Shown: positions 4,541 through 31,800, counted from the first letter of the stretch. The stretch: 63,602 bases of DNA from a virus (IMGVR_UViG_3300034022_000282:1-63602); one strand, 5' to 3'. Notes: generated from the sequence alone by a model not told the origin. Translations and numbers: made by a program.

Positions 4541-4541
4541 T

Positions 4542-9426: not shown

Positions 9427-9450
9427 CCTCTATTATTTCTCCATTAAACT

Positions 9451-9573: not shown

Positions 9574-9578
9574 TATCT

Positions 9579-9737: not shown

Positions 9738-9981
9738 TTTCAAAACATTTAGTAAAGACCCGTACAAGGCTACCATGTTTATGGTTCTTTGTGCTATTGC
9801 ATACTTGTACGTAGATAATAAGATTAACTATACAAGTCAAATAACTAAACACGAGCAGAAGATAATTGTGCTTGAACAAAAAGTTGATTTGTTAAGTTCA
9901 GCATTAAAACGTTCTGATAGTGCATTAGTAGCTGTCACGACAAGACTAGAAGTATTAACTCAAATGGGGGCTATCAAATAA
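9721..9981 (+). CDS. membrane protein with one TM helix and a coiled coil (holin/antiholin-like)
   Basis: ATMFMVLCAIAYLYV hydrophobic stretch followed by a heptad pattern. Confidence 0.55.
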   Translation: MTLPISFKTFSKDPYKATMFMVLCAIAYLYVDNKINYTSQITKHEQKIIVLEQKVDLLSSALKRSDSALVAVTTRLEVLTQMGAIK

Positions 9982-10313
9982 TGAAATATTTATTATTGTC
10001 AATAATAACAATATTAGCAGTATCATTATCAGAACCCAATAGAGAATTGGAGTATGATTCATCAGTAGATTCATTACTTGCAAAGACTAATAACACATTT
10101 AAGAAAGCATCTACAGTATGTGTTAAAGCTGAAAAGCAACAAACAAAGATGATTACAGAAGTAAAAGAGAAAGTAGTATCGTTAGAAAAAGATAAAGAAG
10201 ATCTACAAACAACACTAACAGAAACTAAAACTCAACTTCAAAATGTTAAAGAAACTATTAATACTAACGCTGCTGACACTGGTGAGCAGTTTGACTTATT
10301 CCCAAGTAATTAA
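9981..10313 (+). CDS. signal/TM-anchored coiled-coil protein (i-spanin-like)
   Basis: MKYLLLSIITILAVSLS N-terminus followed by a long coiled coil. Confidence 0.5.
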   Translation: MKYLLLSIITILAVSLSEPNRELEYDSSVDSLLAKTNNTFKKASTVCVKAEKQQTKMITEVKEKVVSLEKDKEDLQTTLTETKTQLQNVKETINTNAADTGEQFDLFPSN

Positions 10314-11034
10314 AACAATTGAAGGGCAAAAAGTAGTTTTATTTACACTTGAACAAGCTAAAGGAGTAAATGATACCTTTGTAATTCAAAAACAAAACAT
10401 TGCTAAATTAAAATCTCAAGATAGTTTAAATCTAGTAAGTGTTAAATATTTAATACAACAAGATAGTATCCATAAAATTAAAGATAGTATAACTTACTAT
10501 CAACAAGTGCTTCCTGCATTTGCTGAAATAAAACAATTATTAGTTGCACAAATTGAAACTCCATTTAAAGGTAATATTGAAATAGGAGTAGGTGCAGGTG
10601 CATCAACTTACTTTGGTAATTTTAGACCTTTCAATACAATTGCTGACGGTAAGTATTATATACCATCAGGTGCCGGAGTATTAAAATATAATTTTCATAA
10701 ACATCTAACTTCAAGATTTGAGGTAATAGGTACACAAATAGCAGCTGGTCCATTAAGTAAACAACTTATAATAGGTACAGTACTTGTAGACTACAATATT
10801 GCTCCTAATATGTACAGCATCAGAGTAGGCATGATACCTACTGTAAGTGTAGGATTAAACGTATTCGGCTTAACAGATAAGTCATTGGTAGTTGGAGCTG
10901 GTATTAAATCATACTTTACAGCATCAACTGCATTAGAGATTAACGTAAGATACGGACTAACAAATATAGACAATGTTGGAGGTACAGATACCTTTATTTA
11001 TGGGCATTTAATTTTAACAAAACGTATACTATGA
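10243..11034 (+). CDS. secreted protein: signal peptide, coiled coil and outer-membrane beta-barrel (Bacteroidota OMP/PorT-like)
   Basis: MLKKLLILTLLTLVSSLTYSQ signal; amphipathic strands EIGVGAGASTYFG, GAGVLKYNF, GAGIKSYF, ALEINVRY, FIYGHLILTKRI. Confidence 0.6.
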   Translation: MLKKLLILTLLTLVSSLTYSQVIKTIEGQKVVLFTLEQAKGVNDTFVIQKQNIAKLKSQDSLNLVSVKYLIQQDSIHKIKDSITYYQQVLPAFAEIKQLLVAQIETPFKGNIEIGVGAGASTYFGNFRPFNTIADGKYYIPSGAGVLKYNFHKHLTSRFEVIGTQIAAGPLSKQLIIGTVLVDYNIAPNMYSIRVGMIPTVSVGLNVFGLTDKSLVVGAGIKSYFTASTALEINVRYGLTNIDNVGGTDTFIYGHLILTKRIL

Positions 11035-13301: not shown

Positions 13302-14030
13302 ATGAACTACAGAACAGTCTCTGCTAAAACAATAGTTGAAACAGTATTCTCAAGATACCGTAATTATATATCTCAAGATTCTGATGGATTAGTGGGTAAT
13401 GCCGTTGAATGGATGGGTGAAGCCTTAGAAGCTATTGGTATCCTTTCAGCAATGGAAGATATAGATGCTGTTCATGCCGTTGAAAATGGTAGAGTAGAAA
13501 TTCCTTGTAATTTATACTTAATAAAATCAGTAGCACATGACGGTAATTGGTTACCTTACGGTTCCCAAACATTTAATTATGACCTTCACTGTACTCATTG
13601 TGTAAATGAAGATGCATCAAAAGATTTACCTTATTCATACATTGTTAATCCAAATTGGATACAAACCAATGTTCCTGATGGAGAAAATATATGTATTAGC
13701 TACAAAGCTTTTGCTGTAGATGAAGAAGGATACCCACAAATTCCAGATAAAGTAACAGTTAAACAAGCATTGTTTTGGTATATTACTATGCTAATGTGTT
13801 TAGGTGGATTCCAACATCCGGAGATTAACTTTGACAAAGCTGAACAAAGATGGTTAAAATATTGTGGTCAAGCTGAAGCTGACTTAGCATTACTTGATAA
13901 ACCACAAAGAGAAACATTTAGAAATCAGTGGGTTAGATTAATTTCTACTACCCAACATGATTATAGAGATTTCTTTAGTAACATTGAAGGTGAAGTTTTG
14001 CAACAAAAATATAACAACCAAAGAGTTTAA
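13302..14030 (+). CDS. tail tubular/ring protein (P22 gp4-like)
   Basis: EWMGEALEAIG, ISYKA..VDEEGYPQIPD, W..YCGQA motifs; upstream of the muzzle gene. Confidence 0.7.
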   Translation: MNYRTVSAKTIVETVFSRYRNYISQDSDGLVGNAVEWMGEALEAIGILSAMEDIDAVHAVENGRVEIPCNLYLIKSVAHDGNWLPYGSQTFNYDLHCTHCVNEDASKDLPYSYIVNPNWIQTNVPDGENICISYKAFAVDEEGYPQIPDKVTVKQALFWYITMLMCLGGFQHPEINFDKAEQRWLKYCGQAEADLALLDKPQRETFRNQWVRLISTTQHDYRDFFSNIEGEVLQQKYNNQRV

Positions 14031-17000
14031 TGCTACCACTAAAAATAAATACAGATTTAGACCCAACAAATGCTCCAGAAAACTCTTCAACCTTAAATGT
14101 CAACATGAATGCTGACATTTTAAAGGGTGTTATCAGTAATGAGCAAGGGTTTGATATAATTACTTTAACTAATGACAGCAGGAAGATTATCGGTAGTTGT
14201 TTATTACCTGATAATTCTACTTGTTTATTTTCTCAAATATTTAATAATGCTAACTATGCATCTGAAATAGGTGTAGTTAAAGAAGGTGTATATACTGTTA
14301 TACTAAGAGATAATCTATTAGTTAATGCTGCATTAGGTTTTAATACTACTAATTTAATTCAAGCACAATCTAAAGTTAACTTTAATGGTGATTTTGTAAT
14401 ATACTGGGTAGACGGTAATAACTCAGATAAATGGTTAAATATTACTAACTTACAAGTAGATACAACTACAGATTTAAAAATAACTGATGCTGCTCAATTT
14501 AATTTAATGCTTGGGTTTGCTCCTGCAATAGGAGATTTACCTAGTTTATCTATTATTGAATCTGGTAGTTTAGAATCTGGAGTATACTATGTAGCAATTA
14601 CTTACGGAGATAAATTTCAAAATTTCACTAGAACAAGTTTAATTTCTAATCCTATACCTGTAGTATCTCCTAATGCTCCATTTGATAATCAATACATTGG
14701 ATCAAAACCAGTTACTTTTACTAATAAAGCTATAAACGTAAGTTTAGATGTTAATGTAACAAATATTGAATATACTTTTGTTAAAGTAACTGTTATATCT
14801 AAAATTAATCAAGTACTTAAAGCTTATGAGTTTGGTATATTTGAATTAGCTACTAATAATTTTCAATGTGTTGTTGATACATTAGTAAATAAAACAGAAG
14901 TTAGTGTAGACTCAGTTGTTATTAATAATGCTGATTATAACTCTTCACTTACACTTACTCAACTAGACGATGTACTTTACAAAGCACATTTACGTAGTAG
15001 ACAAACTATTGATTTGCAACCTTATGTAAATAACATAAAAGTAAACTATGTACAAAAAGAAATAGATTTAAGCTCATCTTTACCAAATGAATCTTTTAGA
15101 GATCCTAACATGACTTTTTATTCTAAGGGGTTTATGTATGATGAAGTATATGCTTTGTATGTTTCTTTTATTGTAGAAGATAATGGTGAATACGAAACTG
15201 AAGCTTACCATATTCCTGGTAGAGAAGCTGTTAATGTTGATTTAGGTATAGGTATTGCAATTAATCCTTTAGAAACTGAAAACATATCTACTATAGCTAC
15301 AGCTGCTAATCCAAATGATTATTGCAGTGTAGAGTATTTTAGAAATTTACCAAATGCTCAACAACCTTTTAATAAATTTTATGATTTAGACCCAATTAAT
15401 TCTAAAATATTTCATGCTATAACAACTAATAATAATCCATTAGCTGATACCAACATGGGTTATTACGAAAATAAAGATGAAAGGTATAGTTTGTTAAGCA
15501 AATGGTTAACATTAGATAATACTAGTACCCCTGTTCCCGGTAAAGATTATAGAGGTCAGAATGTAAGACACCATAAATTTCCTGAAGCATATAACCATAA
15601 TTTAGAAAGCTTAACTCCAAATTTATCTAAAAGTATACATCCGTCAACTACTAATTATAATTTGGTTAACTTATTAGGTATTAGATTATCTGATGTAGTT
15701 ATACCAGATGAATTAATAGGTAAAGTTAAAAAAATAAATATATATTATGCTAAAAGAGATTTAAACAATAGAACTGTATTAGGCCAATCTTTATTACAAT
15801 CTCTTTCTCAATTTCACAATTATACTTCTACACGAGATAATTACGATACTAAAAATACTGTATGGAACAATAGTGGGCAATTTGTAGGTTATCAAATGTC
15901 TCAAGATACAGGTTTATCTGCAAGAGTAGCTGGTATTTTTCCAGTTGGGTATGACAGAACTGCAGCACAAACTCCAGATACTTGGATGTATGCTTCTCCT
16001 GTAATTTTTACTGATCGTATAAATCCTACATTTTGGGGTAAAGGGTATTATAAATTTAAAGCTTTTGATTTAATGCAACAATCTCTTAGTACAAATTTAG
16101 CTACTTACGTTAAAAATTTGTATAGAGTAAAAAGTGTGTATAAAGTACAATTAATAGATGGAGTTAATTTAAGTGATCCGTCATTAAACATGATTACTTT
16201 GTTTTTATTTGATCCTTGTAATGCTACTAATACTACTAGTATTGCTGCAAATTATTATGGCGGTATAGATAGGCTTGTATCAAATAATGAAAGTTTAGCT
16301 AATAATATTAGATTAATAACTAATTCATCTTACGTATCTCAAGGATTTCCTAATCAAAGATTTATTACAGAATCTTCACCTTATTCTTTTTCAGCAATAC
16401 CTTTTAATTATGGTGGTGAAACTAGTTTATGGTTAGAAACTGATTATTTTTTAAATAGTTGGAATTACGCATCAACTTTAAATCAAATAAATAATGATTT
16501 TAGTTATATAAATTATATTAACAATACTACTTTTTTTGATACAAATACAAATTTAACTGATAGATTATATGCATCACCTTATATATCAAATTTGTGTGTT
16601 TACAAATTAAATATATTTCAAACATTTGATAGTCAAGTATTATGTTTAGCTAATTCAATAAATATTGAAGATATTAGTATTACTGATATTTATAATGGGG
16701 ATACTTTTACAACTATTAATGCTGATAAAGGGGGTGTAGATGCTTCTGCTTATACACCTCAAGGTAGTCATCCAATAGCTACAAATCCTAATGATAGACC
16801 TTTAGGTCAATTTAGAAGTGTACATTGTTATATTACTCAATCAACAGCTAATCCTAATTACAGGTATGAAGGTGATAATAGTTGGGAAACTTTTTATCCG
16901 TACACTTCAATTGATGAAATGTGGAGTATAGCTCAAACAGATCCTGAATGGTATGGTTACAACATTGATTATTCATCAGTTAATGATATTAAACAACCTG

Positions 17001-18850
17001 TAATAGGTTCTAACTTTGATAACCAGTTGCAAGATTATTTTCCTAATAGAGTAATAAGATCTGCTAAAGATAATCCTGAAATTCAACAAGATAACTATTT
17101 AGATTATCTAGCTGGAGATTACAAAGACTTTGGTAAAATTAAAGGTAAGATACGTAATATAACTAATCAGAATAATAAATTACTTATTAAAACTGATAAT
17201 GCTTTATACGCAACTTTAGGTCGTGAGGTTATTTCAACTGAGAATGCTGAAGCTAATGTAACTGCAGGAGATATATTTGCTGTAAAACCTAGAGAAATAG
17301 TATCATCTGATTCTTATGGTGGTGGTTTAGGTAGGTTTGCAGATACTGTAACTCAGTATGGTTACATGTATCCTGATACTACTAACGGTATAGTTTATAA
17401 TTTTAACGGTCAATCTGTAGATGAAATATCTAAAGCAGGTAGACAAATATTTTTTAGAAATGAACTTAAATTTAAATTACCTAAGTTATTAGATAATTAT
17501 GTATTTAGTAAATTTCCAGCATACAATAGCATAGCAACTTACATTGAAAATTACTATGTAACTTTTAATGGTAAAGTATGGGTGTCTTTAACTGATGGTA
17601 CTTTAGGTACTCCTGGTCAATCAGAAGATTGGCAATTAGTAGATTATAATTTTACTAGAATTGATTCTATTGTAGATCCATATTCTATAGGTGTACAAGC
17701 TACATTTGATTACAAATACAGAAGGTATATACTAACTAAAAAAGATTATACGTTTAATACTGTATCTGGTATATTTGGGTTTGTAGGTAACATACCTGAT
17801 ATGTTGTTTGCTAATACTATTACTAATGGTGTTACTAAAGCTTGGTACAATGGTTATATCTACACATTGTATGTTGTAGGTGATACTCCTGCACCTCCTG
17901 CTAATGCTGAATATTTAGTTACTAGAGGAGTATATGGTATATACGGTGTAAAAACAGATTTTAATTCTATATTTAATTTAGATAGTTTTGTAACTGCTTA
18001 TTACCCAGAACTACAAGCTTGGGTATCTATGTATGATTTTGGTGGAGTACCTGAGTTTATGGCTTACACTATAGATAAAACTTACTCATTTAACGGTAAC
18101 ACTTTATTTAAACATAATTCAGATACACAAAATACTTTGTTTTATGATAGAGAAACTCCTTACACTTCATTTGTAGAGCCTATATTAAACACTCCACAGG
18201 GAGTTAAAAGATTCTCATCATTCTCTTTTATAACTGAATTGTTTAGAGCTAACGGTACTTTAGATTATTTAAAAACTTTTACAAATTACTTTGTAAGAAA
18301 CTCTTATCAGATTTCTGATAAAATAGAAGTTGTTAATACTAAAACATCTAGAAATGCTGAAGGGTATTTTAATGCTAATGAATTTAGGGATTTAACTAGA
18401 GATAACTCTAAACCTTTAATGACTGATGCTATTATACATCAACCTGATTTAGCTAACATTAACGTTAATAAACATTGGTCTAAACAAAAGAAATTTGTAG
18501 ATTATTATTTAATACCTAGGTTAGAATATACCCCAGAATTATTAACTGGAACTACTCTTACAATTGGTGGTGACATTTACACTTTAAATGGTATATTGGA
18601 AGATGGTACTATAATTAAGTTTATTTATTTAGGAGTTACTTACGTTTATCAATTAAACAAAGTAGATGTTTCTACAGTTCTTAATCAAACAACTTTATCA
18701 GTAGGTTATGTTGTTTCTTTAAATAATACCCCTATACTTAATCCAAATCCTTTTGATCCTAGTATAATAATACCTTCTTTTGAATATACATTTAAAAGAA
18801 CATTAGACTTATTTGATATAAATACTTTAACCCATAAAAATACAAGATAA
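14030..18850 (+). CDS. tail stabilisation/muzzle protein (P22 gp10-like)
   Basis: 1606 aa beta-rich; YWVDG.N, GFMYDEVYA.Y, AYHIPGR, VRHHKFP, GDTF motifs; synteny. Confidence 0.8.
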   Translation: MLPLKINTDLDPTNAPENSSTLNVNMNADILKGVISNEQGFDIITLTNDSRKIIGSCLLPDNSTCLFSQIFNNANYASEIGVVKEGVYTVILRDNLLVNAALGFNTTNLIQAQSKVNFNGDFVIYWVDGNNSDKWLNITNLQVDTTTDLKITDAAQFNLMLGFAPAIGDLPSLSIIESGSLESGVYYVAITYGDKFQNFTRTSLISNPIPVVSPNAPFDNQYIGSKPVTFTNKAINVSLDVNVTNIEYTFVKVTVISKINQVLKAYEFGIFELATNNFQCVVDTLVNKTEVSVDSVVINNADYNSSLTLTQLDDVLYKAHLRSRQTIDLQPYVNNIKVNYVQKEIDLSSSLPNESFRDPNMTFYSKGFMYDEVYALYVSFIVEDNGEYETEAYHIPGREAVNVDLGIGIAINPLETENISTIATAANPNDYCSVEYFRNLPNAQQPFNKFYDLDPINSKIFHAITTNNNPLADTNMGYYENKDERYSLLSKWLTLDNTSTPVPGKDYRGQNVRHHKFPEAYNHNLESLTPNLSKSIHPSTTNYNLVNLLGIRLSDVVIPDELIGKVKKINIYYAKRDLNNRTVLGQSLLQSLSQFHNYTSTRDNYDTKNTVWNNSGQFVGYQMSQDTGLSARVAGIFPVGYDRTAAQTPDTWMYASPVIFTDRINPTFWGKGYYKFKAFDLMQQSLSTNLATYVKNLYRVKSVYKVQLIDGVNLSDPSLNMITLFLFDPCNATNTTSIAANYYGGIDRLVSNNESLANNIRLITNSSYVSQGFPNQRFITESSPYSFSAIPFNYGGETSLWLETDYFLNSWNYASTLNQINNDFSYINYINNTTFFDTNTNLTDRLYASPYISNLCVYKLNIFQTFDSQVLCLANSINIEDISITDIYNGDTFTTINADKGGVDASAYTPQGSHPIATNPNDRPLGQFRSVHCYITQSTANPNYRYEGDNSWETFYPYTSIDEMWSIAQTDPEWYGYNIDYSSVNDIKQPVIGSNFDNQLQDYFPNRVIRSAKDNPEIQQDNYLDYLAGDYKDFGKIKGKIRNITNQNNKLLIKTDNALYATLGREVISTENAEANVTAGDIFAVKPREIVSSDSYGGGLGRFADTVTQYGYMYPDTTNGIVYNFNGQSVDEISKAGRQIFFRNELKFKLPKLLDNYVFSKFPAYNSIATYIENYYVTFNGKVWVSLTDGTLGTPGQSEDWQLVDYNFTRIDSIVDPYSIGVQATFDYKYRRYILTKKDYTFNTVSGIFGFVGNIPDMLFANTITNGVTKAWYNGYIYTLYVVGDTPAPPANAEYLVTRGVYGIYGVKTDFNSIFNLDSFVTAYYPELQAWVSMYDFGGVPEFMAYTIDKTYSFNGNTLFKHNSDTQNTLFYDRETPYTSFVEPILNTPQGVKRFSSFSFITELFRANGTLDYLKTFTNYFVRNSYQISDKIEVVNTKTSRNAEGYFNANEFRDLTRDNSKPLMTDAIIHQPDLANINVNKHWSKQKKFVDYYLIPRLEYTPELLTGTTLTIGGDIYTLNGILEDGTIIKFIYLGVTYVYQLNKVDVSTVLNQTTLSVGYVVSLNNTPILNPNPFDPSIIIPSFEYTFKRTLDLFDINTLTHKNTR

Positions 18851-19245
18851 TGAAATTAACAGATAAAATTAAACCAACCGTAACAAAAGCAACTATACCT
18901 CAATTAATTTCTGAGTTATTAGAATCTGTATTGATAGTGCATAAAATGCATTTACAAGCTAAGTCTAGAAGTTATGCTGAACACCAAGCTTTAGGTGAGT
19001 TTTATGATGCAATTGGAGATTATGCTGATAGTATCTATGAACAATTTGCTGGACAAACTACAACTGTAGATATACCTGATGCTATGATTTATGACACTAA
19101 TCCTATCAATTATTTAGAAATTTTAGCTAAATTCGTAGAAAGGGTACATGCTAATAGTGGTGAATATTCTCATTTGCAAAATCAAATGGACGAAGTTAAG
19201 TCACTAATATTTGGTACCTTGTATAAGTTAAAGTATCTTAAATAA
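18850..19245 (+). CDS. ferritin/Dps-like four-helix-bundle protein (DUF5856-like)
   Basis: HKMHLQ..SYAEHQALGEFYD..D...E ... DE....TLYKLKYL. Confidence 0.7.
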   Translation: MKLTDKIKPTVTKATIPQLISELLESVLIVHKMHLQAKSRSYAEHQALGEFYDAIGDYADSIYEQFAGQTTTVDIPDAMIYDTNPINYLEILAKFVERVHANSGEYSHLQNQMDEVKSLIFGTLYKLKYLK

Positions 19246-22200
19246 TGAAACGTAGTCTTAAAAAATATGATAATGGTGGGAAAATTAAAAAACCAATTTT
19301 TCCAGGTAAATTAGATAACAGAATAGTTTCTGATAATACCTCTGTGCAAAGACCTACCATACAACAACAAGACGTAAGATTAAAAACTCCACAAGAAGTT
19401 AAGAAAGCTAATAGGGAAAACTTTCAAAAACGTATAGGTGTAAAACCTACATACAATGTTCAAGAGTTAACTGACTTTGGTACACCTGAACCTGGATTAG
19501 AAGATGCTTCATTAGAAGCTTTAGATGCTTTAAGTTTAGCTAGTGGTGTAGGTTATTTAGGTAAAAAAGGATTACAATTAGGTGCTAAAGAATTAGCTAA
19601 TGTTTTAAAACCAAAACTTTATTCTCGTTTGACTTTTCCTAAACCTGTAGTATCAAAGTATATTCCATCATTACCAAATGCTTCTTCAATTGATTATAAT
19701 GAAGTAATTAGAAGAAATAAAAATTTAAAAGAATTGTGGGAAAATCCTGAAAGTAATAAATTAATGGCTTGGGATGGAACACCGTTAAAATTAAATCACA
19801 TATCTGAAAACCCAGATTTAATTAATACTTTAGATAACAATAAATTAAAATATCAAGGTCTTTATTTTAATCCTAAAAAAGAATGGGCATTTGGTAAAGA
19901 ATTAGGGTATAGCACTCAACCTTGGCATAAATATACTGTTGAAGACGCTTTTTCTAAAAAACCATATATTGCAGATTATCATGGGCAATTACAAAATTTA
20001 AAACCAGGTGCAAATAGAATAGGAGATAAATTAAGAAAACATATTTCTGAAGGTAAAGATGTAAAAAGTTTTGTTGATAGAGAAAGACAATTTGGAATAT
20101 CTAAAATTAAAAACCAGACGCAATCTCCTGAATTTAAAGCTTACATGAGTAAACTTAAAAAAGAAAACCCTGAAAGTTTTAAAAATGAAGTTGATCTAAT
20201 AAGAAGAAATAGGGATTTTAAAGATTTAGATTTTATAGAAAACATTTACAATAAAGGATACGATAGTTATGTTTCTTATGGTGGGCCTAAAATAGACCCT
20301 TTAAAAAGAGGTTTGGAAGATGCTTATGAAATTGTTTTATTTAATAAACCTGCAAATCTTAAAAAAGAATTTAAAAAAGGTGGAATAATAAAAGATGATA
20401 GGGGTCAATGGGCACACCCTGGAGAAATAACAGAAATAGGTTCTAACAACATAACAATGCAAGGTGTTAACTACCCTGTATTAGGAGTATCAAATCAAGG
20501 TGATACACAAATGATGTACCCAGAACAAGATTACCAATTTAGAGGTAATAAAGTTACTGAGTATCCTATGATGCAAAGAGGAGGTAAAGTAAAACCTATT
20601 GTTGTTAATGACCCTAATGACCCTAGATTACAAGCTTATAATGATAGTTTAAGTTTGTATAATAAAGGAAAAAGTTATTTAAACCAACCTTATTCTAATA
20701 ACTTATATGATTATACACAAAATTTATTAAAATTTGGGTACAGTAAAAAAATAGCTCCTGGAGAAAGTAAAAAAGGTATTAGTGACTTAATGATACCTCA
20801 GTATAAAAAACCTGTTCAACCTTATGTATATAACCCTATCACTAAACAAACTACAACAGCAGAACAAATTAAACCTTTGTATCAAGCACCTCAATTAACT
20901 ATGCCTGAAAGGTTAGAGTTAAGTATGAATAAACCTAATGTTGTACAATCAGCTGAAGGTCCTACTTTTAAACAAGGTAGAAAGTTTATGAGGGAAACAG
21001 GTTTAAGACCAGGGTATTATGAAGAAGGTGGTACATTACAAGAAAATACAAATATGGAATACGGTAAAGGTGGTTACACAGTAAAAAGAAGTTCTGATAG
21101 AAAAGGCAAAACACATGTTGTTATTGGCCCAGACGGAACTAAAAAATATTTTGGTGATCCTAATTTAGGAGAAAGAGGTAAATCTAAATATGGTAAAGAA
21201 GCTTTCTATGCTAGACATAAAAAGAACTTAGATGCTAATCCATACTTTAGAGCTTATGCTAGAGCTACTTGGGAAGACGGAGGTACAATTCCTGAACAAG
21301 GGCATATATCTATGAATAAAAGAAGTTTATTTAAATACGGTGGTTTAACTGTAACTGATTTAAATAAATATGATGATGGTGGTATTAATTTAGGTAATGC
21401 TTCTAAAATTAAACCATATGATTTTAGTAAATTAGCTTCAGGATTAGGTGGAGGTTCTACAAATGCAGCTACTACAGGTGCTACTGTTAGTCCTGCTGCT
21501 GTTGGTGCCGGTATAGGATTTGGTGCAGAAATGGTTGGTGCTTTAATACCTGAAAAAAGTTATACAGATTCTGAAGGTAATGATTTAGGCAGTAGAAAAT
21601 CTGTAGGAGAATCTGCTTTAAGTTCTGCCGCTTCAGGTGCTTCAATGGGTATGGTTGCCGGACCTTGGGGTGCAGCAGCTGGTGCAGTGCTTGGCGGTGC
21701 TTATGGTGCCATTAAAGGTTTTTCAGAAAAAGAAAAAATGGATAAACTTCAAGATGAAGCTGAAACTAGAATAACTAATAAAAATATTAATAAAAGAGCT
21801 AACGCTAGTTATAATTGGGGTACTCCTAATATCAATACTTCTCAAAACTTTATGTTTGCTAGAGGTGGTATGGTATTAGATTACGATGATCCCAATGCAA
21901 ATGCTGAACTTGAATTACAAGAAACATTCCAAATGCCGGATGGTACTGTAGGTAATGTAGATGGGCCTTCACATGAAAATGGTGGAATAGCTGTTGATTT
22001 ACCTGAAGGTACTAGAATCTGGTCAGACAAATTAAAATATAATGGTAAGACATTTGCTAAACATACTAAGCCTATTACTAATACTATAGCTAAGTTAGAA
22101 AAGCAAATAGAAAAAAACCCAGTAAATAGTGATGCTAAAGAAAATAGTATTGCATTACTTAAAAACCAATTAGATTATTACTTTGATACACAAGAAACTA

Positions 22201-23687
22201 ATAAACAAAATACTGAAATGAAACGTACTTTAAGAGAAGGTGGCATGATTAAACGTGCTGATGGTTCTTACTCAAAAAGAGGTTTATGGGATAATATTAG
22301 AGCCAACAAAGGTTCTGGTAAAAAGCCTACACCTGAAATGTTAAAACAAGAACGTAAAATAAATAATGAAATGGAAATGGGTGGTTACATGTACGGCCAA
22401 GGTGGTACAAACAATCCAGGGTTTAATGCATTACCAGAAGAAGTTCAAGAAAATATATTAGCTCATATGTCTATGGGTGGACGTTTAATGAATGACCCTA
22501 TGTTTGCTGAAGGTGGTATACATATTAAACCTGAAAACAGAGGTAAGTTTACTGCTTATGCTGAATCTCATGGTAAAGGTGTACAAGAAATGGCTGCTCA
22601 TATAATGGCTAACAAAGAAGATTATTCTCCTGCTGTTGTTAAACGTGCAAACTTTGCTAAAAATGCTGCAGGTTGGAAACATGAAATGGGTGGTTTAGTT
22701 AAATATGAAGTGGGTGGCCCTTTTGAACAAGATGAAGAATATTTAACAGGTTATGGTACTCCAAATGTTCCAACTCCATACATTCCTATGGAATACAATG
22801 AAAATTCATTTCCTATGGGAGAAACTCCTAGGTCTTTAAGATCTGTTAATCCTTATACTCAAAATACAACCCCTGCAGTAAATACAAATCCTTACAGAAC
22901 GTTTTATGAAACTAATTCTAATATTCCTAAAGGTCAACCTTTAGGTTCTACTGTTAATGCAGGTATGCCTCCAGTAACTACACCTGAAGCTACAGGGTTC
23001 TTTAATAAAGCAGGTCAGTTTATACAAAACAATCCTGGTTTAATAGGACAATTAGGTACTGCAGCTTTAACTGCTGGTAGTCAGATGAATAGAATTAATA
23101 GATTAGCTAGACCTAAAACTTTAGCTGATGTTAGGTTAAGAGATAGTGTAGCTAATCCTAATTTAGTAGATTATTCTGCTGAAAGAAATGCTATTGACAG
23201 AGCAGCTTTAACCGGTATGGGTGAAGCACAAAGAGGATTCGGTTCTTCTGCAGCTGCACAAGCATTTAAAAATAAAGCTAGATTAAACCAATTAGAAGGT
23301 ACAGGTAGATCATTCCAAGGTCAAGAAAATGCTAATGCTCAAATTAAAAATCAATTCTTAGCTGCTCAACAAGAAGCTGCAATGAAAGAAGCTATGATGA
23401 ATAGTGAGATTGGTAAGTATAATCTTGAAAATGTTTATGGTTACGATACTATGACTACAGCTCAAAAGAATGCTATAACTGCTATGTTAGGTAATACTGC
23501 TGGTCAAACATTTGGTAAACAAACTGATTATGCTAATCAATTAGAAAAAGCTAACATATTATCTAATCAATATGACCCTAGTGTTCTTAATGATATGATT
23601 AAGAATGGTAAATTAAAAGTTGTAGACGGTAAAATAGTAAAAGCTAGAAATGGTGGTACTATTAAAAAACGTAGTTTTAAAAAATAA
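19245..23687 (+). CDS. virion cargo/ejection protein; modular polyprotein-like with repeated xxGG motifs
   Basis: 1480 aa; glycine-zipper TM (GASMGMVAGPWGAAAGAVLGG), GPSHENGGI motif, about 18 xxGG motifs; first gene of the cargo cluster. Confidence 0.75.
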   Translation: MKRSLKKYDNGGKIKKPIFPGKLDNRIVSDNTSVQRPTIQQQDVRLKTPQEVKKANRENFQKRIGVKPTYNVQELTDFGTPEPGLEDASLEALDALSLASGVGYLGKKGLQLGAKELANVLKPKLYSRLTFPKPVVSKYIPSLPNASSIDYNEVIRRNKNLKELWENPESNKLMAWDGTPLKLNHISENPDLINTLDNNKLKYQGLYFNPKKEWAFGKELGYSTQPWHKYTVEDAFSKKPYIADYHGQLQNLKPGANRIGDKLRKHISEGKDVKSFVDRERQFGISKIKNQTQSPEFKAYMSKLKKENPESFKNEVDLIRRNRDFKDLDFIENIYNKGYDSYVSYGGPKIDPLKRGLEDAYEIVLFNKPANLKKEFKKGGIIKDDRGQWAHPGEITEIGSNNITMQGVNYPVLGVSNQGDTQMMYPEQDYQFRGNKVTEYPMMQRGGKVKPIVVNDPNDPRLQAYNDSLSLYNKGKSYLNQPYSNNLYDYTQNLLKFGYSKKIAPGESKKGISDLMIPQYKKPVQPYVYNPITKQTTTAEQIKPLYQAPQLTMPERLELSMNKPNVVQSAEGPTFKQGRKFMRETGLRPGYYEEGGTLQENTNMEYGKGGYTVKRSSDRKGKTHVVIGPDGTKKYFGDPNLGERGKSKYGKEAFYARHKKNLDANPYFRAYARATWEDGGTIPEQGHISMNKRSLFKYGGLTVTDLNKYDDGGINLGNASKIKPYDFSKLASGLGGGSTNAATTGATVSPAAVGAGIGFGAEMVGALIPEKSYTDSEGNDLGSRKSVGESALSSAASGASMGMVAGPWGAAAGAVLGGAYGAIKGFSEKEKMDKLQDEAETRITNKNINKRANASYNWGTPNINTSQNFMFARGGMVLDYDDPNANAELELQETFQMPDGTVGNVDGPSHENGGIAVDLPEGTRIWSDKLKYNGKTFAKHTKPITNTIAKLEKQIEKNPVNSDAKENSIALLKNQLDYYFDTQETNKQNTEMKRTLREGGMIKRADGSYSKRGLWDNIRANKGSGKKPTPEMLKQERKINNEMEMGGYMYGQGGTNNPGFNALPEEVQENILAHMSMGGRLMNDPMFAEGGIHIKPENRGKFTAYAESHGKGVQEMAAHIMANKEDYSPAVVKRANFAKNAAGWKHEMGGLVKYEVGGPFEQDEEYLTGYGTPNVPTPYIPMEYNENSFPMGETPRSLRSVNPYTQNTTPAVNTNPYRTFYETNSNIPKGQPLGSTVNAGMPPVTTPEATGFFNKAGQFIQNNPGLIGQLGTAALTAGSQMNRINRLARPKTLADVRLRDSVANPNLVDYSAERNAIDRAALTGMGEAQRGFGSSAAAQAFKNKARLNQLEGTGRSFQGQENANAQIKNQFLAAQQEAAMKEAMMNSEIGKYNLENVYGYDTMTTAQKNAITAMLGNTAGQTFGKQTDYANQLEKANILSNQYDPSVLNDMIKNGKLKVVDGKIVKARNGGTIKKRSFKK

Positions 23688-23783: not shown

Positions 23784-25838
23784 ATGGCAATTGATTTCAA
23801 CAAACAATTAGTTTTTGATCCGAAGATAGATATAGTAGGAGAAGAAGTACCATTAGCTGAAATGGAAAAAACAGGTCAAGTTTTACAAGGTAGATACGAT
23901 AAATCATACGAAGATTATAGTACTTTTAAAGAATTAGCAAAACAAACAGAGCAAATATCTGATCGTGAAGAAAGAGAAAAAGTAAAAGAATACATTAAAG
24001 ATTTAGAACCACAAGTTAAACAAATTGGTGAAAAAGGTGATTTTCATAATATGAGGCAACAAACAGCTGCTTTAGCTAAAAATGCTGCTTTTAATTTAAA
24101 ACTGTTTGGTGAAAGAGCTGCTGAAGTTAAAAAATATAGAGACTTAATAGCAGCTAATGATAAGCTTGGTGACGAAGAAACAAAAGCATATTACCAAAAT
24201 AAACTAAATAAAACTATGGCTGAGACTCAGTACAATCCTGAAACTAAGTCTTTTAATTTTAGTGCTTTACAATTACCTAAAATGGTAGAAGATTACAATA
24301 GTAATAAACTTCTACAAGATGCAACTCAAGGTTGGTTAGCTAACACTTATAAAGATGAAGCAGCTAATTTAGTTGTGCTTAAAGCTGGAGATAAAATACC
24401 AAATGTTGGTGGGACAGCTCCAGTAGAAGGTGTTTATAATACTAAAACAGGCAGACAAACAGCAAAAGTAGATTTTAATGAAATTTATAATAATGTTTTA
24501 AAAATAGCTAAAGGTGAACGTGGTTTACAAGCAATGTTACAAAGAGATTTTGAAATTAAATCTGAAGGTAAAAATTTAAATCCTGAACAACAAGAAGCTC
24601 TTAAAGAATCACTTAAAAGAAAATATTTATACGATCCATTAACAGGTTTTGCTAATAAAGCAGCTAATGAAACAATAATTAATACTGAAGATTTAGCTCT
24701 TGATAAAGGGGCTACTGATTTATATAATGCTGGTTTAGCAGCTAATGCTGATAACGGAGGTATAGATGATACTTTTGAAAGTACTATTAAGCCTGGAGAA
24801 TCTTCACCATTAATTACAGAATTAAACCAACCTTTAACAAAATTTGGACAATTAACAAATTATACACCAGGTAAAACTTATGATTATACTATAAATGATG
24901 AATATAAACCTAAACTTAAATTAGTTTTTTCAGGTTTATCAATACCTAATTTAAAGAAAATGCAAAATGGTACACCTGAACAAAAACAATTATATGCTGA
25001 ATTAAGTAAGAATAAACAAATTTATGGTCTTTATAATGATATAATGGCAAATAAACCTATATCTAAACGTGCTTATGGTGATGTAATGGAGATATTAAGT
25101 AAATATAATTATGCACCACCTACATCTTATAAATGGGTATCAGCAAATGATAAACGTTTAGTAAATGAATTAGTTAAAGAAGACCCTTCTGTTATGACTG
25201 CTAATGGTATAGTAGATACTGAAAAAGCACAACAAGTTTTAAATAGAAGATTGTTTGGGGATAATAAAGGACTTGTTATAGATAAAGATGGTAATTTTAC
25301 AAGTGCTAATACAGAAGGTTTAGATATAATGGACCCAGAAACTGGTCAAGTTTTACCATTTAATGAAGCTTATAAACAAAATAAATTTGAATTAAAATCA
25401 GGTAATCTTTTTGATAACTCAAGAACTATTCAAGTTAACGGTAAAGTTAAACCAGGATCTTTAGCACATGCTCATAGTGAAAATCCTCAACAAGATTTAT
25501 CTTATTTTGGAGCAGGTTATACTATAAATTCTAACGGTAAACAATATATAGTTGCTAAAAGAGGAGAAGTACCTTTAAATTCTAGTGCTGCTAAACTAAA
25601 TGATTTAGCTTCTTTTAGTAGATTTTCTAGAGATGAAAAACAATATAAAACTTCTGATGGTCAACCGGTAAAAGTAAAATCAGATTTTTCAGGTAATGTA
25701 ATAATAACACATAACGGAAAATCTCAAGTTATACCTCAAGATCAATACAATGCAACCCTGCAAAATTTAGGGAATGCAGATGTAAAAAACCCAATAGATT
25801 ATTTACCACAATTTAAAGCATTTACACCTAAACCATAA
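23784..25838 (+). CDS. virion cargo/ejection protein
   Basis: 684 aa, helical N-half; lies between cargo protein 1 and the vRNAP. Confidence 0.6.
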   Translation: MAIDFNKQLVFDPKIDIVGEEVPLAEMEKTGQVLQGRYDKSYEDYSTFKELAKQTEQISDREEREKVKEYIKDLEPQVKQIGEKGDFHNMRQQTAALAKNAAFNLKLFGERAAEVKKYRDLIAANDKLGDEETKAYYQNKLNKTMAETQYNPETKSFNFSALQLPKMVEDYNSNKLLQDATQGWLANTYKDEAANLVVLKAGDKIPNVGGTAPVEGVYNTKTGRQTAKVDFNEIYNNVLKIAKGERGLQAMLQRDFEIKSEGKNLNPEQQEALKESLKRKYLYDPLTGFANKAANETIINTEDLALDKGATDLYNAGLAANADNGGIDDTFESTIKPGESSPLITELNQPLTKFGQLTNYTPGKTYDYTINDEYKPKLKLVFSGLSIPNLKKMQNGTPEQKQLYAELSKNKQIYGLYNDIMANKPISKRAYGDVMEILSKYNYAPPTSYKWVSANDKRLVNELVKEDPSVMTANGIVDTEKAQQVLNRRLFGDNKGLVIDKDGNFTSANTEGLDIMDPETGQVLPFNEAYKQNKFELKSGNLFDNSRTIQVNGKVKPGSLAHAHSENPQQDLSYFGAGYTINSNGKQYIVAKRGEVPLNSSAAKLNDLASFSRFSRDEKQYKTSDGQPVKVKSDFSGNVIITHNGKSQVIPQDQYNATLQNLGNADVKNPIDYLPQFKAFTPKP

Positions 25839-25841
25839 AAT

Positions 25842-28800
25842 ATGCCAAATTTATCAGAGTTATTAGATGAGTATAATAAAGGTATTCAAAAAAATAAATC
25901 TTTAATAAGTCCTGAAGAAATGAATGTTGGATTTGGTTTAGCCAAAGAACAAGACATTCCATTTTCATCAAAAGACTTAGGACAAAGTATTTATGAAGAA
26001 GTTGAAAATAGACGTAGTAGAAATCAAGGAGCTTGGGAAACCGTAGGAATTGGAGCAGCTAGATTAGCTGGTAAAACTTTAACTAAAACAGCTGAAGGTG
26101 CCGGTTTTATAGCCGGATTGGTAGGAGATGCTTTAGGTAATGCTGTTGGTTTAGATACTAACACAGATACATATAAAAAAGAAGGTGACACAAGTTTAGG
26201 TGGAAATTTATCAGCTTGGATAGCTGGTGCTGCTGATAACGGTTTAGCAACATTAGCTTCTGACATGGAACAAAAATTAGAAGACATTACTCCTTTATAC
26301 AATAGTTTAGAAGATAGAGCAGCTAACAAAATGAATGTCTTTAATAACTTAATGGACGGAGATTTTTGGGCTGGAGATGCTGTGGATGCTACTGCTTTTT
26401 TATTATCTGCTTATTTAACAGGTGGTGCCGTAGCTGAAGCTAAAATAGGTCAAGGATTAGTTAAAGGGTTAGCTAAAAAAGGTTTAATGTCAGGTAATTT
26501 GAATAAAGTTGCTAATGCTACTAACCATTTTACAGCTACTGCTTTACAAACAGCTTCTGAATCTATGTTTGAGTCTAAAGAATTACGTGATAATTTACGT
26601 GAACAAATAGCTGAAGAAAGATACGGTGCTAATTTTGATTTTCTTTCTCCTGAACAACAAAAAGAAATTAATGTTGAAGTTGCTCCAGCAGCAGCTAAAA
26701 GTTTTGGTTTAAACATGTTGTTGTTAGCACCTTCAAATGCTTTAGAGATGAAAAATTTAATGAAATCATCTTCTAGAATTACAGGTAAAACTAAAGGGTT
26801 AGGGTCAAAAGGGTTACAAACAATAGAAGAAGTTACAGGAGATATAAATTTACCTTTTGATATGTCATTACCTACAAGTAAAATACCATATTTAGGTGCA
26901 GGAGTAAAAGCTGTAAATAAATTTGGTAGTACTAGAGCAGGTAGTATTTTATCAGCTCAAGCTAATAGTATATTATCTGAAGGTTTATACGAAGAAAATG
27001 CTCAGTTAGCTGTATCTGAAATGTTAAAAGTTAATAGAGATGCTGATTTATTTAGTCTAAGTACTTATGGAGATATAGGTTCTAAGATGAGTGAAAACTT
27101 TGAAACAGAAGAAGGTAAAAAATCTATGTTGTTAGGTTCACTTGTAGGTGGTATATCAGGTACTATGGGTGGTGTTAAAGATTATAATGCAAATAAGAAA
27201 AAACAAGATTCAGCTATTGAGTATACTGGTAAAGAACTTGCCAATATGTTTTCTGTAAATAATGTTTACGAAACTGAAGAATACACACAAGATGTAGACG
27301 GTAAACCTGTTGTTAAAACTAAATACAAATTAGACGAAAATGGTCAACCAATTGTAGACCAAAACAAACTTCAAGCTGTTTTAAAACAAAAACAAGAATT
27401 TGAATTTTTAGATGACGTTGCTACATTAGCCGAAGAAAAAGGAGATGATGTATTATATGGTTTAGCTAAAAACAATGCTATTAATAGATGGATTAAATCT
27501 CATTTTGCTACAGGTTCAGAAGATTTATTAGAAGGTAAAATTGAATATCTTCAAAATTTATCTGATGAAGAATATTTAAAACAAGGGTTAAACCCAGCTG
27601 AAAAAGGACAATACATTGCTAACATACGTAATAAAATTAGTGAGTTTACCAAATTATCTAAAAACATTGAAAACAACTTAGTTGCAATGGATAATAGTAA
27701 AGTAGGTTCTCAAAATTTTAAAGCTAGAAAAAATGAATTGTACAATATAGGTACAGTTTTAAATGATGTTAAAGACGAAAAAAACAGATTACTTTTGGAA
27801 CAGGCTGAAATTAATTCTGATGAACAATCTCAAACATTAAATGCTAAAAGATCAGCTTACATTGATTTAAAAGTTAAAGAATTAACAGAAGCTGAAAATA
27901 AATACAAAGAAGAGTTTAACAAATTAGGTAATTTAAATACTGGTCAAAAATATTTTGATAATGACTATAAAAAATCTATTACTCAAAAAGTAAATTCATT
28001 TAATTTTCAAAGTGGTAATTTAGATCAATTTAATGCTTTTGAAAATTCTAAACTATACAAATCAGGTTTAGAATTAAAAGCTAAAAACATTGAAAATGAT
28101 TTTTTTGAACAAGGTACACAAGAACGTATAGAAAATGGTGAAGATGCTACAGCTATTGTAGATGATTTAGTAGCTGATAATGTGCCTGTTACACAAGAAA
28201 CTAAAAATTTACTAGAAAGTAAATTAAATTCAGAAAAAGAACTTATAGAAGAAATTAGTTCTTATGTAGAACAAATGCAAAATGGGTTAGAACCTGACCC
28301 ATTATCTCCAGCTGCTCAAGAATTAAACAATAGTTTTAATGATAATTTTGATGCTTTTAATGAGTATTCTAATAAAATACAAAGTGCTTTAAATAACCTT
28401 ACCAATCTACCATTAGCTACTAAAATGGATACTAGTAAAAAAGCTATTAAAGCTAAAATATTAGAATCATTTACTAATATGGTAAACAGTATTGTATTTG
28501 TAGCATCTAATAACGAAGATTACGAAAATGTATCTGAAATAGAAAACGCTATTAAGTCTTTAGAAAATACAATTAAAATACTAGAAGAAAAGAAAGATTC
28601 TGAGTATGATGATGTTATTGCTAATTACAAAAATATTTTAAAAGAATTAAAAGATTTAGAAGCTGTAGTTAAAGAAAGAGCTGCAGATAAACAAAAACAA
28701 CAAGAAAAAATAGCAACTCAAAGTTTAGAGTTACAAGAAGATAGTGTTGCTTCAGTACCTGAATTAATTACGTTAGTATCTGATATTACAGGATTAGATG

Positions 28801-31800
28801 TTTCTGACTTAGACAATCAAACTAAAGATATGCCTTTGTGGGAAAAGATTGGGTATTTAACTAATATAATTAGTCAAATAAAAACTCAAATTACTCCTGA
28901 ACAACTTCAAAAACTTAAAAACTTAGAAAGAAGTTTAACAACTCAAGTTGAAAGTTTAGTTGTAGCTAACTCTAAATCTTATGTATTAGTAGATATTATT
29001 AAAAAGTATTATGGTAAAAACCCTAAATTAATTTTTAATGATATTGTACAGTTAACAATTAAAGCTTCTGAAGATAAAACTTCTGCTTATGCTAAGTATT
29101 TAAAAGATTTTAATTTTTACAATCTTTTTGAAAAAATTATTAGCAATGAAGTTGAATTTAGGTTACCTGAAAATGTAACACATGAAATTTATAATCTTCA
29201 TAAACAAGTATTAGGTGTTAATAATTTAATTTCTATTATAGAAAGTGCTTACAACCCAGTAACAGAAGTAGTAACTGAAAATGCTATTGGTAAAGAAGAA
29301 AAAATAGTACCTTCTAATCAACAATTAGCAGCTATTCGTGATTTAGTTAAATTCTTATTTACTAAAAAACCTAATGTACCATTTGGTAACTTTGCATATT
29401 TAAAAGGATTTGCTGGTACCGGTAAAACTAATATTGTACTTAAGTGGTTTACAAAAGTTGCTGCTTTAAAACAAGAAGAAATATTTGCTACTGGGCACAA
29501 TGAAAATTCTGCTAAAGCAATTAATGACGCTATTGGAAATCCTAATGCAAAAACATTAGAAGAACTTAAATTTAAACTTGCTAATAATGAATTAGGTAAA
29601 ACTAAATTAATCATTATTGATGAGGTAAATGCTTTAAACAAAAATGAAATAATTGAAATTAACAGATTATTAGTATCTTACAATCAAACTAATAATACTG
29701 AAATAAAAATAATAGGTTTAGGTGATCCTAATCAGGTTACTGCTACAGGTGAAAATCCATTTTTATCTCCAGCATATACTGCTGGTTTAGAAAATGCTAC
29801 TATAATTACACCACTTACTATTCGTTATAGAAGTAATGTACAAGCAGTAGTAGATGCTCAAGATTTGTTTATGGATCAAAAGAAAGATTTAACTAAACAA
29901 GAAATCTTTTTAACTTCTAATTCTGAAAAAACTTTAGGTGCAGAAGGGTCATTACAATCAGATAGCATTAAACAAGCTTTAGCACAACGTGATTTAAACG
30001 ATGGTAAAACTAGAGCTATAATTGTACATCCTAGTGAAGTAGAAATGTGGAAAGCTGAAAACTTAGGTGTTGAAGTGGTTTCATATATTGATGTTCAAGG
30101 TAGAACTATAGATGAAGTATTTGTAAGTATACCTAGTACTAAGTTTGGTGATTCATTTGCATTTAACCAAGCTATGTATACAGCTACTTCACGTGCTACA
30201 AGTTTTATACATATTAACGGCATGGCATCTAAAAATGTAACAGATGAAAACGTTAATAAAATTACAGATAAAAACGTTAAAGCTATACAAGAATCTAAAA
30301 TTAAATTTGAAGAAGACCGTGTAGCTGAAATGAAACAAATAGATGATTCTATTGAAATTAAACCTCTAGTTAAACCTCAAGAAGAAGTAAAAGAAGAAGA
30401 AGAGGAAGAAGTTGATTTAGAATTAGAACCTGAATTAATACCTATAACACCTGAAGAAGAAGTAGAAATACAACCTACTTCAGCTGAAGTGTTAAATCTT
30501 AAATACCCTAATAACAAATCATTAAAAGGTAATACTCAAAATGGTAAAGATGTACCAGCTGTAAAACCAGGTGAAGAAGTAATTTATGTACCTTTTGAAA
30601 ATAAACAAGGTAATAAATCTATTGGTGTATTTGTAAATAGAAATGGTGATTATTTAGAAATAGGTGTGTTATCTCAACAAGAATTAGATAATCCTCCTGC
30701 AAATAAAATTGATTTGTTTAATAAGTTTAAAGAAGCTTTAAAAGGTCCTATAACTAAATTTACAATTAATAATGAAACAGGTTATCTAAATGTTTCTAAT
30801 ACTAGTAGTTTAATTACATTAGCTAAAGGTAAAGTAGAAAATGTTTCTAAACTTAAAATGATTTACAAAGCAATTTCTGAACCTTTTAATTGGCAAAATA
30901 TTCTTACTAAATTTAGAAAAGGATTTTTTACAACTGCAGAAGGAGATGCTGCACAATTAGAAAAGAGTCAAATTAGAGTGTTTACTACTAATGAAATAGC
31001 TCAATTAAAAAGTAAAGGGGTTACTTTTCCATTAACTGCAGGTAGACCTTACATAATGATTGTAAACCCAATACAAGCTACTGGTCAAACAGCTATACCT
31101 CAATTTATAGAATTAGAAAGAAAATCTTTAAACAAAGATGAGCATAGTTTTATTACAGCCCCTATTTATGATTTTATAGCCAAGTATGAGCAATTTAAAG
31201 ATGCATTTAGTGAATTAGACTCTAATGAATTAGCTGATTTAATTACAGCTACTGATGAGTTTTTACCTACATTAATTGATAAATTAAATGGTAAATACAA
31301 AAAGAAATTTAATTTAGCTAATCCTATTTTAGAATTACGTAAAGAAATTAACAACTTACTTTATACTGAATTAACTGAACAAGATCTTGTAATTAAAAAA
31401 GGAATGAAAGTTAAAAACCTTGCTATTCCTTTTACTAAAAAAGATAAAAATAACAATACCGTAGAAGTTAATGGTGTAGTTGTAAAAGTTAAAGAAGATG
31501 AAGTTGATGTTAAAGTAGAAAATGAAGTTGTAACTGTTAAGTTATCTGATTTACAACCTGTAGTAAAACGTAAACCTGGACCTGCTCAAAAAGCATTTAA
31601 TATTATTGCTCAAGGTAATAATACAGCTGCTGGTTACACTATACGTTTAAATTACAATGCTAACGGTACCCTTTTATCTAAAGCTAAATCTTTGTTACCA
31701 AAAACTGAAAATTTAACTGTAGACCAAATTATAGAAAAGTTTAAAGCAATGAGTTCATTTAAACAACAAAATGTTTTAAACAAATTTCAAGAAATTTATG

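Follow-up and report, generated by a model that had tools for sequence, protein, structure and literature searches.

Introduction

Crassviruses are among the most abundant gut phages, are also found in marine environments, and inject megadaltons of protein before their DNA. One cargo protein is described from the crAss001 particle, C1/gp45 (PDB 7QOG, PF25725 crAss_CARG1; Bayfield et al. 2023, PMC10172136); according to the text of that paper, a domain made up of its residues 425-552 binds the portal within the head, a helix of residues 214-245 is bound in the interior of the tail barrel, and a transmembrane helix is predicted at 136-158. Here we describe a gene of comparable position and layout, located at 19245-23687 (+) of IMGVR_UViG_3300034022_000282, a 63.6-kb record of an uncultured phage (63,602 nucleotides, CheckV completeness 72%) that is referred to below as the window. 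Its 1480-aa product is filed as a C1-type (gp45-type) cargo protein on the basis of position, layout and shared parts, and not as a proven member of PF25725. It is called the cargo protein hereafter. It consists of a string of modules separated by a recurrent motif, bulky-x-x-Gly-Gly-x-hydrophobic, termed the joint.

As with crAss001 gp45, the gene of the cargo protein follows the muzzle gene, and its product carries a hydrophobic segment, then a domain of the GxSHExxxGG type, then a C-terminal domain. Joints of the same kind are present in gp45 at 206-210, 426-428 and 432-435. The two differ in that a small DUF5856 gene stands between the muzzle and cargo genes of the window, and in that gp45 has 842 aa whereas the cargo protein has 1480 aa, with about a dozen extra modules and 17 joints.

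Two other described systems resemble this organization. Polyvalent proteins (Iyer, Burroughs, Anand, de Souza, Aravind 2017, PMC5512222) are described there as large multi-module proteins that are delivered with DNA and show extensive mosaicism, as does the cargo family, whereas the cargo protein itself lacks a recognised effector or MPTase domain. In polymorphic toxins, a short conserved peptide such as PT-VENN of CdiA marks the border of exchange and may be a processing site, as far as the text of Zhang et al. 2012 (PMC3482391) goes; these toxins have one border before one C-terminal toxin, whereas in the cargo string each module is bordered on both sides and exchange is not only C-terminal. 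No description of the joint motif was found in the literature, including the main text (supplements and figures aside) of PMC10172136, PMC5512222, PMC10136315 and PMC7886860; in the text of Iyer et al. 2017 (PMC5512222) no joint motif is named and the words linker and glycine occur 0 times.

A recurrent Gly-Gly motif is enriched in the cargo protein and in its relatives

The initial annotation had placed 18 hydrophobic-x-x-Gly-Gly motifs along the gene, and every one of them was found where it had been placed. The expression [FYWMLH]xxGG fits 17 of the 18, the exception being ARNGG. The protein holds 22 GG in total, the four others being VSYGG (20271), two overlapping GG in GLGGG (21438/21441) and AVLGG (21684). 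Enrichment was assessed with 20,000 shuffles of the same protein that kept its composition. The 17 occurrences of [FYWMLH]xxGG compare with 2.87 +- 1.66 expected; the shuffle maximum was 11 and 0/20,000 reached 17. When a hydrophobic residue two places after the GG was required as well, 10 occurrences were observed vs 0.77 expected (0/20,000 shuffles). GG by itself was only mildly enriched (22 vs 14.5, with 547/20,000 shuffles reaching 22), which indicates that the signal lies in the context of the motif and not in glycine content. The motif is found 11.5 times per 1000 aa in the cargo protein vs 0.96 in the other 40 ORFs of the record (17 motifs in 17,646 aa); the neighboring large proteins carry 0 (684 aa), 1 (4288 aa), 1 (1465 aa) and 3 (muzzle). 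The initial annotation held the pattern to be conserved at the protein level and not to be a DNA repeat. This is borne out by the codons: the GG codons are mostly GGT GGT, like the general Gly codon use of the ORF, the flanking codons differ from one motif to another, and the record is devoid of direct repeats of at least 40 nt.

Relatives were collected from 5.8 billion proteins, in which 253 of 8000 scored candidates matched at E <= 0.001. The best 120 of these 253 matches are the family members counted below; removing the query leaves 119 relatives. The relatives have a mosaic make-up, in that short segments of the query are matched at high identity. The motif is present in all 119 listed relatives at 4.8-20.2 per 1000 aa, and in 107 of them 0/1000 shuffles reached the observed count (median observed/expected 5.7). 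The frequency comparison set beforehand therefore placed the motif far above background in the cargo protein and in 107/119 relatives. The consensus over 588 non-redundant GG contexts reads K(-4), Y/M/F(-3), A/Q/E(-2), x, G, G, x, I/V, with Y accounting for 24% at -3. At the well-aligned joints 609, 679 and 874 the GG is kept in 93-96%; pooled over all alignments the first Gly is kept in 1355/1783 cells, a figure blurred by alignments that enter non-homologous neighbors. The spacing between GG peaks at 7-9 aa (306/1987 gaps), which is two joint halves back to back, and shows further peaks at module lengths.

Modules are gained, lost and moved at the motif

The cargo gene and its parts, with residues numbered on the cargo protein and frequencies given among the 119 relatives, are the following.

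19245..23687, +, whole cargo gene, open ORF of 1480 aa (pI 9.4, about 164 kDa), modular, assigned as C1-type cargo/ejection protein
19245..19280, +, N-terminal cap MKRSLKKYDNGG, residues 1-12, a basic tag then the first joint, from motif position
19281..19574, +, N-terminal conserved unit, residues 13-110, in 6/119, N-terminal to the core in every case
19596..20384, +, variable unit, residues 118-380, its sole other occurrence being in relative P0003
20385..20585, +, module 2, residues 381-447, IIKDDRGQW...MQRGG, in 25/119
20586..21032, +, module 3, residues 448-596, KVKPIVV...YEEGG, in 11/119
21075..21284, +, module 5, residues 611-680, YTVKRSS...WEDGG, net charge +8, in 80/119
21447..21734, +, glycine zipper and most hydrophobic stretch, residues 735-830, immediately N-terminal to the GPSHExGG domain
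21870..22244, +, GPSHENGG domain, residues 876-1000, conserved core domain
22245..22385, +, module a, residues 1001-1047, MIKRADGSY...MEMGG, net charge +5, in 109/119
22407..22481, +, module b, residues 1055-1079, TNNPGF...MSMGG, in 67/119, with more than one copy in 12
22518..22694, +, module c, residues 1092-1150, IHIKPENRGKF...WKHEMGG, in 94/119, also in crAss001 gp45 and, in two copies, in DAC15 C1
23007..23648, +, conserved C-terminal domain, residues 1255-1468, in 60/119, in each case C-terminal to the core domain
23652..23684, +, C-terminal cap GGTIKKRSFKK, residues 1470-1480, the last joint and a basic tag, from motif position

The units 20385-20570, 21075-21272, 22245-22370 and 22518-22682, which the initial annotation had singled out as compact and mutually unrelated, are independent modules found on their own in relatives. 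When the query was aligned to the 119 relatives by BLASTP, internal alignment starts fell within 6 aa of a motif in 47% of 339 cases and internal ends in 47% of 314, vs 15% expected; the starts cluster at -4..0 and the ends at +1..+3 relative to the first Gly. Large indels were examined by global alignments against 14 close relatives, which contained 239 gaps of at least 10 aa; requiring both flanks to be at least 8/15 identical kept 7 gaps and dropped 232 for poor flanks. In 7/7 of these clean large indels both edges lie inside the motif, and the inserted piece reads "after GG ... up to GG". Module 3 is missing from P0006 in one clean 149-aa gap with both edges within the motif, and P0004 carries a 455-aa extension attached exactly at the GG of the N-terminal cap. 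The global alignments replaced an earlier chaining of BLAST pieces because the latter was noisy; it gave 17 events with GG at both ends in 4, at one end in 12 and at none in 1, for a background of 0.117 per 10-aa window.

The module map of the 119 relatives revealed 54 distinct module orders around a core of fixed order: glycine zipper, GPSHExGG domain, C-terminal domain. The glycine zipper directly precedes the GPSHExGG domain in 50/50 relatives that have both; it includes the most hydrophobic 19-aa windows of the cargo protein (751-769 and 801-819) and is likely the membrane-inserting part. The HENGG counted among the motifs sits within the GPSHENGG domain and is not a joint. Modules are present on either side of the core domain, with copies before/after it numbering 28/29 for module a, 16/24 for b, 16/44 for c and 12/17 for module 5. 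Small, highly conserved, basic modules are also very widespread: module 5 was found in 293 cluster representatives (E<=0.001) of a library of 1.84 billion proteins and, among the best 150 of these 293, it is 58-100% identical (all but three at least 68%) and occupies any position in proteins of 120-2409 aa.

Module c also exists as a stand-alone gene, in 33 small proteins of 60-119 aa. Among the 31 that were aligned, 18 carry a leader of 7-50 aa whose GG immediately precedes the module, and the remaining 13, which have no GG, begin with the module itself; when a C-terminal extension is present, xxGG follows the module in 7/9, and the other proteins end at the last residues of the module. GG is thus found only where something is attached, which identifies it as a joint and not as a part of the module. 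In the comparison of borders set beforehand, gain, loss and movement of modules in relatives fall exactly at the motif; this comparison, like that of frequency, therefore favors the initial observation. The initial annotation had combined two proposals, a plug-and-play cassette and its cutting by a protease. The 54 orders and the 7/7 indels sustain the cassette; the protease is dealt with below.

Matches to known domains come from the relatives. They carry ART-PolyVal, LysM, YkuD (L,D-transpeptidase) and zincin modules, with weak matches to phage lysozyme (just under the Pfam cut-off) and PG_binding_1, and CHAP by precomputed database annotation; the presence of these domains makes the family fit the polyvalent protein concept as set out in the text of PMC5512222. 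Pfam searches returned no known enzyme family for any module of the cargo protein itself. An ART-like nature had been suggested for residues 118-380. This label was not confirmed: no Pfam match was obtained at E <= 10, and the sole signal was BLASTP similarity to the ART-PolyVal region of P0008, weak at E 0.21, in which the H and G-hydrophobic-Y motifs are paired.

Relationship with C1 cargo proteins of other crAss-like phages

The order observed in the window, with the muzzle gene upstream of the cargo gene, is the same in DAC15 and Fpv1; in the window one 131-aa gene stands between the two. Residues 840-984 match phrog_15413 (E 1.2e-13), the family of an Fpv1 protein whose gene likewise follows a structural gene of muzzle size; by tblastn the GPSHENGG domain, over residues 859-984, is 35.7% identical (E 6e-10) to the Fpv1 gene in the C1 position. 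It matches DAC15 C1 weakly (BLASTP E 0.048), and the match to P0113 is limited to the DGPSHENGG signature (E 3e-4). Module c is held in common with crAss001 gp45, at residues 369-425 (profile of stand-alone module-c proteins, E 1.8e-11), and with DAC15 C1, where it occurs twice (BLASTP E 4e-13). DAC15 C1 is tied to the crAss001 protein in turn: DAC15 gene 59, located after a muzzle-sized gene, matches gp45 (PDB 7QOG chain M, E 5e-98) and PF25725 (E 2.3e-52), and PF25725 is also matched by the module-sharing relatives P0109, P0113, P0119 and P0164 (7e-9 to 4e-13), the last of which came from the module 5 search. It has no match in P0026, P0031, P0043, P0046 or Fpv1 C1. A profile built from the alignment of residues 590-1165 matched no PDB chain at E <= 0.001, and profile-profile comparison with DAC15 C1 returned only module c. 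The GPSHENGG domain is likely the counterpart of the portal-binding domain of gp45.

Candidate proteases and intact joints

Cutting of the string at Gly-Gly, as put forward in the initial annotation, was unsupported: searches for known Gly-Gly protease families were negative, the bulky residue occupies P5, and two joints are intact in the crAss001 virion. Families C39 (PF03412), C48 (PF02902) and C5 (PF00770) were searched in the record, which is 72% complete and on which the portal gene and head genes are not present, and in five relatives, namely DAC15, Fpv1 and three IMG/VR records that CheckV rates as 96-99% complete; none was found in any of them. MPTase-PolyVal (PF18818) was absent from the record at E <= 1, a search that covered the record and not the five relatives. 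HExxH is absent from the cargo protein. Adenain-type and PLpro-type sites, (M/I/L)xGG or LxGG, have their hydrophobic residue at P4. In the 588 contexts the conserved bulky residue is three places before the GG, a position that corresponds to P5 if the chain is cut after GG.

Precursors cut by clan CE proteases, such as adenain of adenovirus and pS273R of African swine fever virus, are similar to the cargo family in being basic particle-internal proteins with repeated xxGG sites, and the short basic end peptides found beside GG in the cargo family recall pVIc, the short basic end peptide of adenovirus. The cargo family departs from these systems in that no such protease was found, in the bulky residue being at P5 and not P4, and in the rarity of Ala after GG (x0.1). 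Double-glycine leaders cut by C39 peptidases show a hydrophobic register at P4/P7/P12. These systems have in common with the cargo protein and the stand-alone module-c genes a short leader ending in GG; the cargo protein differs by a leader of 12 aa, by a hydrophobic register at P5 and by the absence of a detected C39 domain.

When gp45 is numbered from HMMER alignments, F426-G427-G428 and T432-Q433-G434-G435 fall inside the segment 425-552 that the text of PMC10172136 gives as resolved; these two joints are therefore intact in the mature crAss001 particle. A further gp45 joint, GG 209-210, is located four residues before the resolved helix 214-245. Processing of gp45 is not reported in the crAss001 papers PMC10172136 and PMC6235969 (figures and tables aside), words for cleavage, proteolysis, protease and scaffold occur 0 times in the text of the former, and the text of the latter describes virion gel bands up to 270 and >300 kDa.

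Zincin modules and a head-block peptidase

HExxH is present in 14/120 family members. One zincin signature, HExxH then P-[ST]-E-x-x-A-[RH] 20-140 aa later, is common to 11 family proteins (P0010, P0071, P0072, P0113, P0118, P0164, P0229, P0231, P0243, P0258 and P0282) and to the annotated "peptidase" of gut crassvirus cr10_1. In 11/11 of these proteins the zincin module ends at a joint, 70-91 aa past the signature. Pfam gave no peptidase match for P0010, P0164, P0231, P0243 or the cr10_1 peptidase, and the latter had no PDB match either.

In cr10_1 (NC_055875.1, 31-6945) the terminase gene is followed by the portal gene, the peptidase gene, module c as a stand-alone gene of 75 aa, one hypothetical gene and the gene for the capsid, in this order. 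The module-c protein has a 20-aa leader ending in YKNGG and is annotated "transcriptional regulator". The same head block was found in L006, a 99-kb IMG/VR crassvirus (3752-10940), whose peptidase homologue (6436-7995) is 46% identical to the cr10_1 peptidase and keeps HExxH. Relative to cr10_1, the L006 peptidase carries an insert of roughly 120 aa with YQDGG on one side and FKDGG on the other, so that a gene of the head block obeys the joint rule as well. More generally, gut crassviruses of one lineage share a head block made of portal, zincin "peptidase", a 72-75-aa module c with a Y-K-x-G-G leader, a gene of roughly 400 aa and the major capsid protein, and many GenBank records of cr*_1 phages name the small module-c gene "transcriptional regulator".

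The distribution of the peptidase is narrow. Relatives of the cr10_1 peptidase were found in only 8 phage records (4 phages) of 50,697, and there is none of this type in DAC15, Fpv1 or three marine relatives. The zincin signature is absent from all frames of the 63.6-kb record. The peptidase is hence rare and is not a general partner of the joints. A regular expression for the zincin signature, which proved too strict in view of the HExxH-bearing L006 homologue, found 0 hits beside stand-alone module-c genes at 50 IMG/VR loci (50 of 80 loci yielded a module-c ORF).

Possible roles of the joints

The account that we favor, with limited confidence, is that the joint remains uncut and acts as a flexible break with a conserved end-anchor on each side, so that modules could fold and unfold stepwise in transit and any joint-to-joint recombinant would be viable. 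The cargo protein would reside in the particle with an anchor at the portal, its chain running towards the tail, and would be ejected before the DNA. Its fixed core (glycine zipper, GPSHExGG and C-terminal domain) is surrounded by a changing set of small, mostly basic modules, with bulky-x-x-Gly-Gly-x-hydrophobic as the standard joint between them: the bulky residue would be the last anchor of one module, Gly-Gly the flexible break, and the x-hydrophobic pair the start of the next module. The joints presumably escape cutting, in the particle at any rate, and folding, unfolding and refolding could then proceed module by module during passage through the portal and tail. Since all modules begin and end alike, recombination between any two joints would give a working protein and modules could be reshuffled freely. 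A universal joint of this kind would explain the fast diversification of cargo proteins, and the joint rule would provide a simple way to split giant unannotated phage proteins into testable units. A number of observations weigh against this account. PF25725 does not match the cargo protein (whole protein at E <= 0.1, residues 876-1000 at E <= 10). In the C1 proteins of the named phages the motif is mildly enriched in DAC15 (6 vs 1.8, 50/5000 shuffles reaching this count) and not enriched in Fpv1 (3 vs 1.35, 748/5000). The two intact joints of gp45 flank or belong to a folded domain, as judged from the text of PMC10172136, and may be unrepresentative of joints between free modules. The idea that the joint caps helices was examined with Chou-Fasman propensities and hydrophobic moments at 361 joints, and the outcome was weak, with a slight upstream helix preference. 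Tandem joints, together with KRS[LF]K tags beside joints and at both protein ends, suggest a peptide that is more than a linker. Finally, the residue after GG is strongly non-random family-wide (Met x3.5, Ile x2.5, Tyr x2.5, Ala x0.1, Phe x0.1); this skew may reflect recognition or only descent from few module families.

Other explanations differ in what the joint would be for. Joints could be cut sites, a phage zincin (embedded or encoded by a separate head-block gene) or a host protease cutting after Gly-Gly at head maturation or after injection and releasing modules and short end tags; such cutting might occur only after injection or only in zincin-bearing lineages, and we regard it as rather unlikely. 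It would fit with the presence of HExxH in 14/120 family members and of a joint at the end of each of the 11 zincin modules, with the depletion of Pro directly after GG (x0.4) and with the retention of GG at the best-aligned joints. The cr10_1 block resembles the portal-protease-internal protein-capsid blocks of other phages, and internal proteins of T4 lose a short targeting leader. Processing of polyvalent proteins by in-built metallopeptidases is moreover a published hypothesis, in the text of PMC5512222. Against it stand the lack of C39, C48 and C5 in the record and five relatives and of MPTase-PolyVal in the record, the position of the bulky residue at P5, the two joints intact in the crAss001 virion, and the bands of >300 kDa and silence on processing in the text of the crAss001 papers. 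A narrower version, in which the joints are recognition sites of a dedicated crAss-like processing system and a new zincin family, in the string or beside the portal gene, cuts the injected string after entry, we consider unlikely; both versions have to face the absence of the zincin signature from every frame of the record and the restriction of the cr10_1 peptidase to 4 phages, DAC15 not being one of them although its C1 has joints. If it were true, one packed chain would give rise to free small DNA-binding and cell-wall-active proteins and to short basic end peptides. Cutting of the joints would amount to a polyprotein strategy in a tailed phage, none of which was described in the literature searched, and would point to a new protease family.

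The joint and the basic KRS[LF]K tags could instead form a repeated docking handle for the portal, tail rings, muzzle, inner face of the capsid or packed DNA, one that loads the cargo and orders its release. We give this proposal a lower chance still; it may coexist with uncut joints. The commonest spacing is that of joints in tandem, no module intervening; family-wide, a GG is located no more than 9 aa from 104/124 KRS[LF]K-type tags, the tag ending 33/120 family members and beginning 21/120. The hopping modules are basic (+5, +3, +8), and the stand-alone module-c genes of the head block, through their "transcriptional regulator" annotation in gut crassvirus GenBank records, give a hint of DNA binding. 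Both resolved pieces of gp45 begin at or just after a joint, with GG 209-210 before the helix and GG 427-428 at the start of 425-552, as read from the text of PMC10172136. On the other hand, the other cargo-position proteins of the genome carry 0-1 motif, which argues that the motif is not a general packing signal here, and 13/31 stand-alone module-c proteins are without any joint. That the motif is a meaningless by-product of composition, or of common descent from few repeats, is hardly credible. The protein is Gly-rich (9.9%), and many joint contexts come from few module families so that their counts are not independent, but composition-keeping shuffles never reached the observed count in the cargo protein or in 107/119 relatives, the modules between joints are mutually unrelated, and the joint is retained where modules swap.

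Gene neighborhood and other features of the record

The record contains no terminal repeat. Its crAss-like markers are the muzzle protein (PF25731, E 4.8e-23, Pfam search of the record), tail ring protein 2 (PF25702, E 1.4e-29) and a DNA polymerase of family A, to which crAss-like phages supply the nearest named relatives (27-30% identity). The genes around the cargo gene are the following.

14030..18850, +, muzzle protein gene, 1606 aa, PF25731
18850..19245, +, DUF5856 gene between the muzzle and cargo genes, 131 aa, DUF5856 E 1e-15, phrog_858
23784..38708, +, the two large genes that follow (684 aa and 4288 aa), placed like those of the crAss001 C2 and virion RNA polymerase proteins

The 131-aa DUF5856 gene bears, through phrog_858, the name "starvation-inducible transcriptional regulator". 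BLASTP of the 684-aa and 4288-aa proteins against their positional counterparts in DAC15 gave no match. In the 4288-aa ORF (25842-38708, +), Pfam matches are confined to SF1-helicase/AAA families at residues 1184-1458; the ORF also contains one HELFH, at residue 2183, without the zincin signature of the cargo-string modules.

At about 43100-44600 the gene strand switches and the GC skew reverses, separating the structural and cargo block on the + strand from the replication block on the - strand. On the replication side, at 50738-53147 (-), a MoxR-like AAA ATPase (405 aa) adjoins a 392-aa DUF2201_N "putative metallopeptidase" and VWA-like protein. A single tRNA-Gln (anticodon TTG) is located at 62145-62218 (-).

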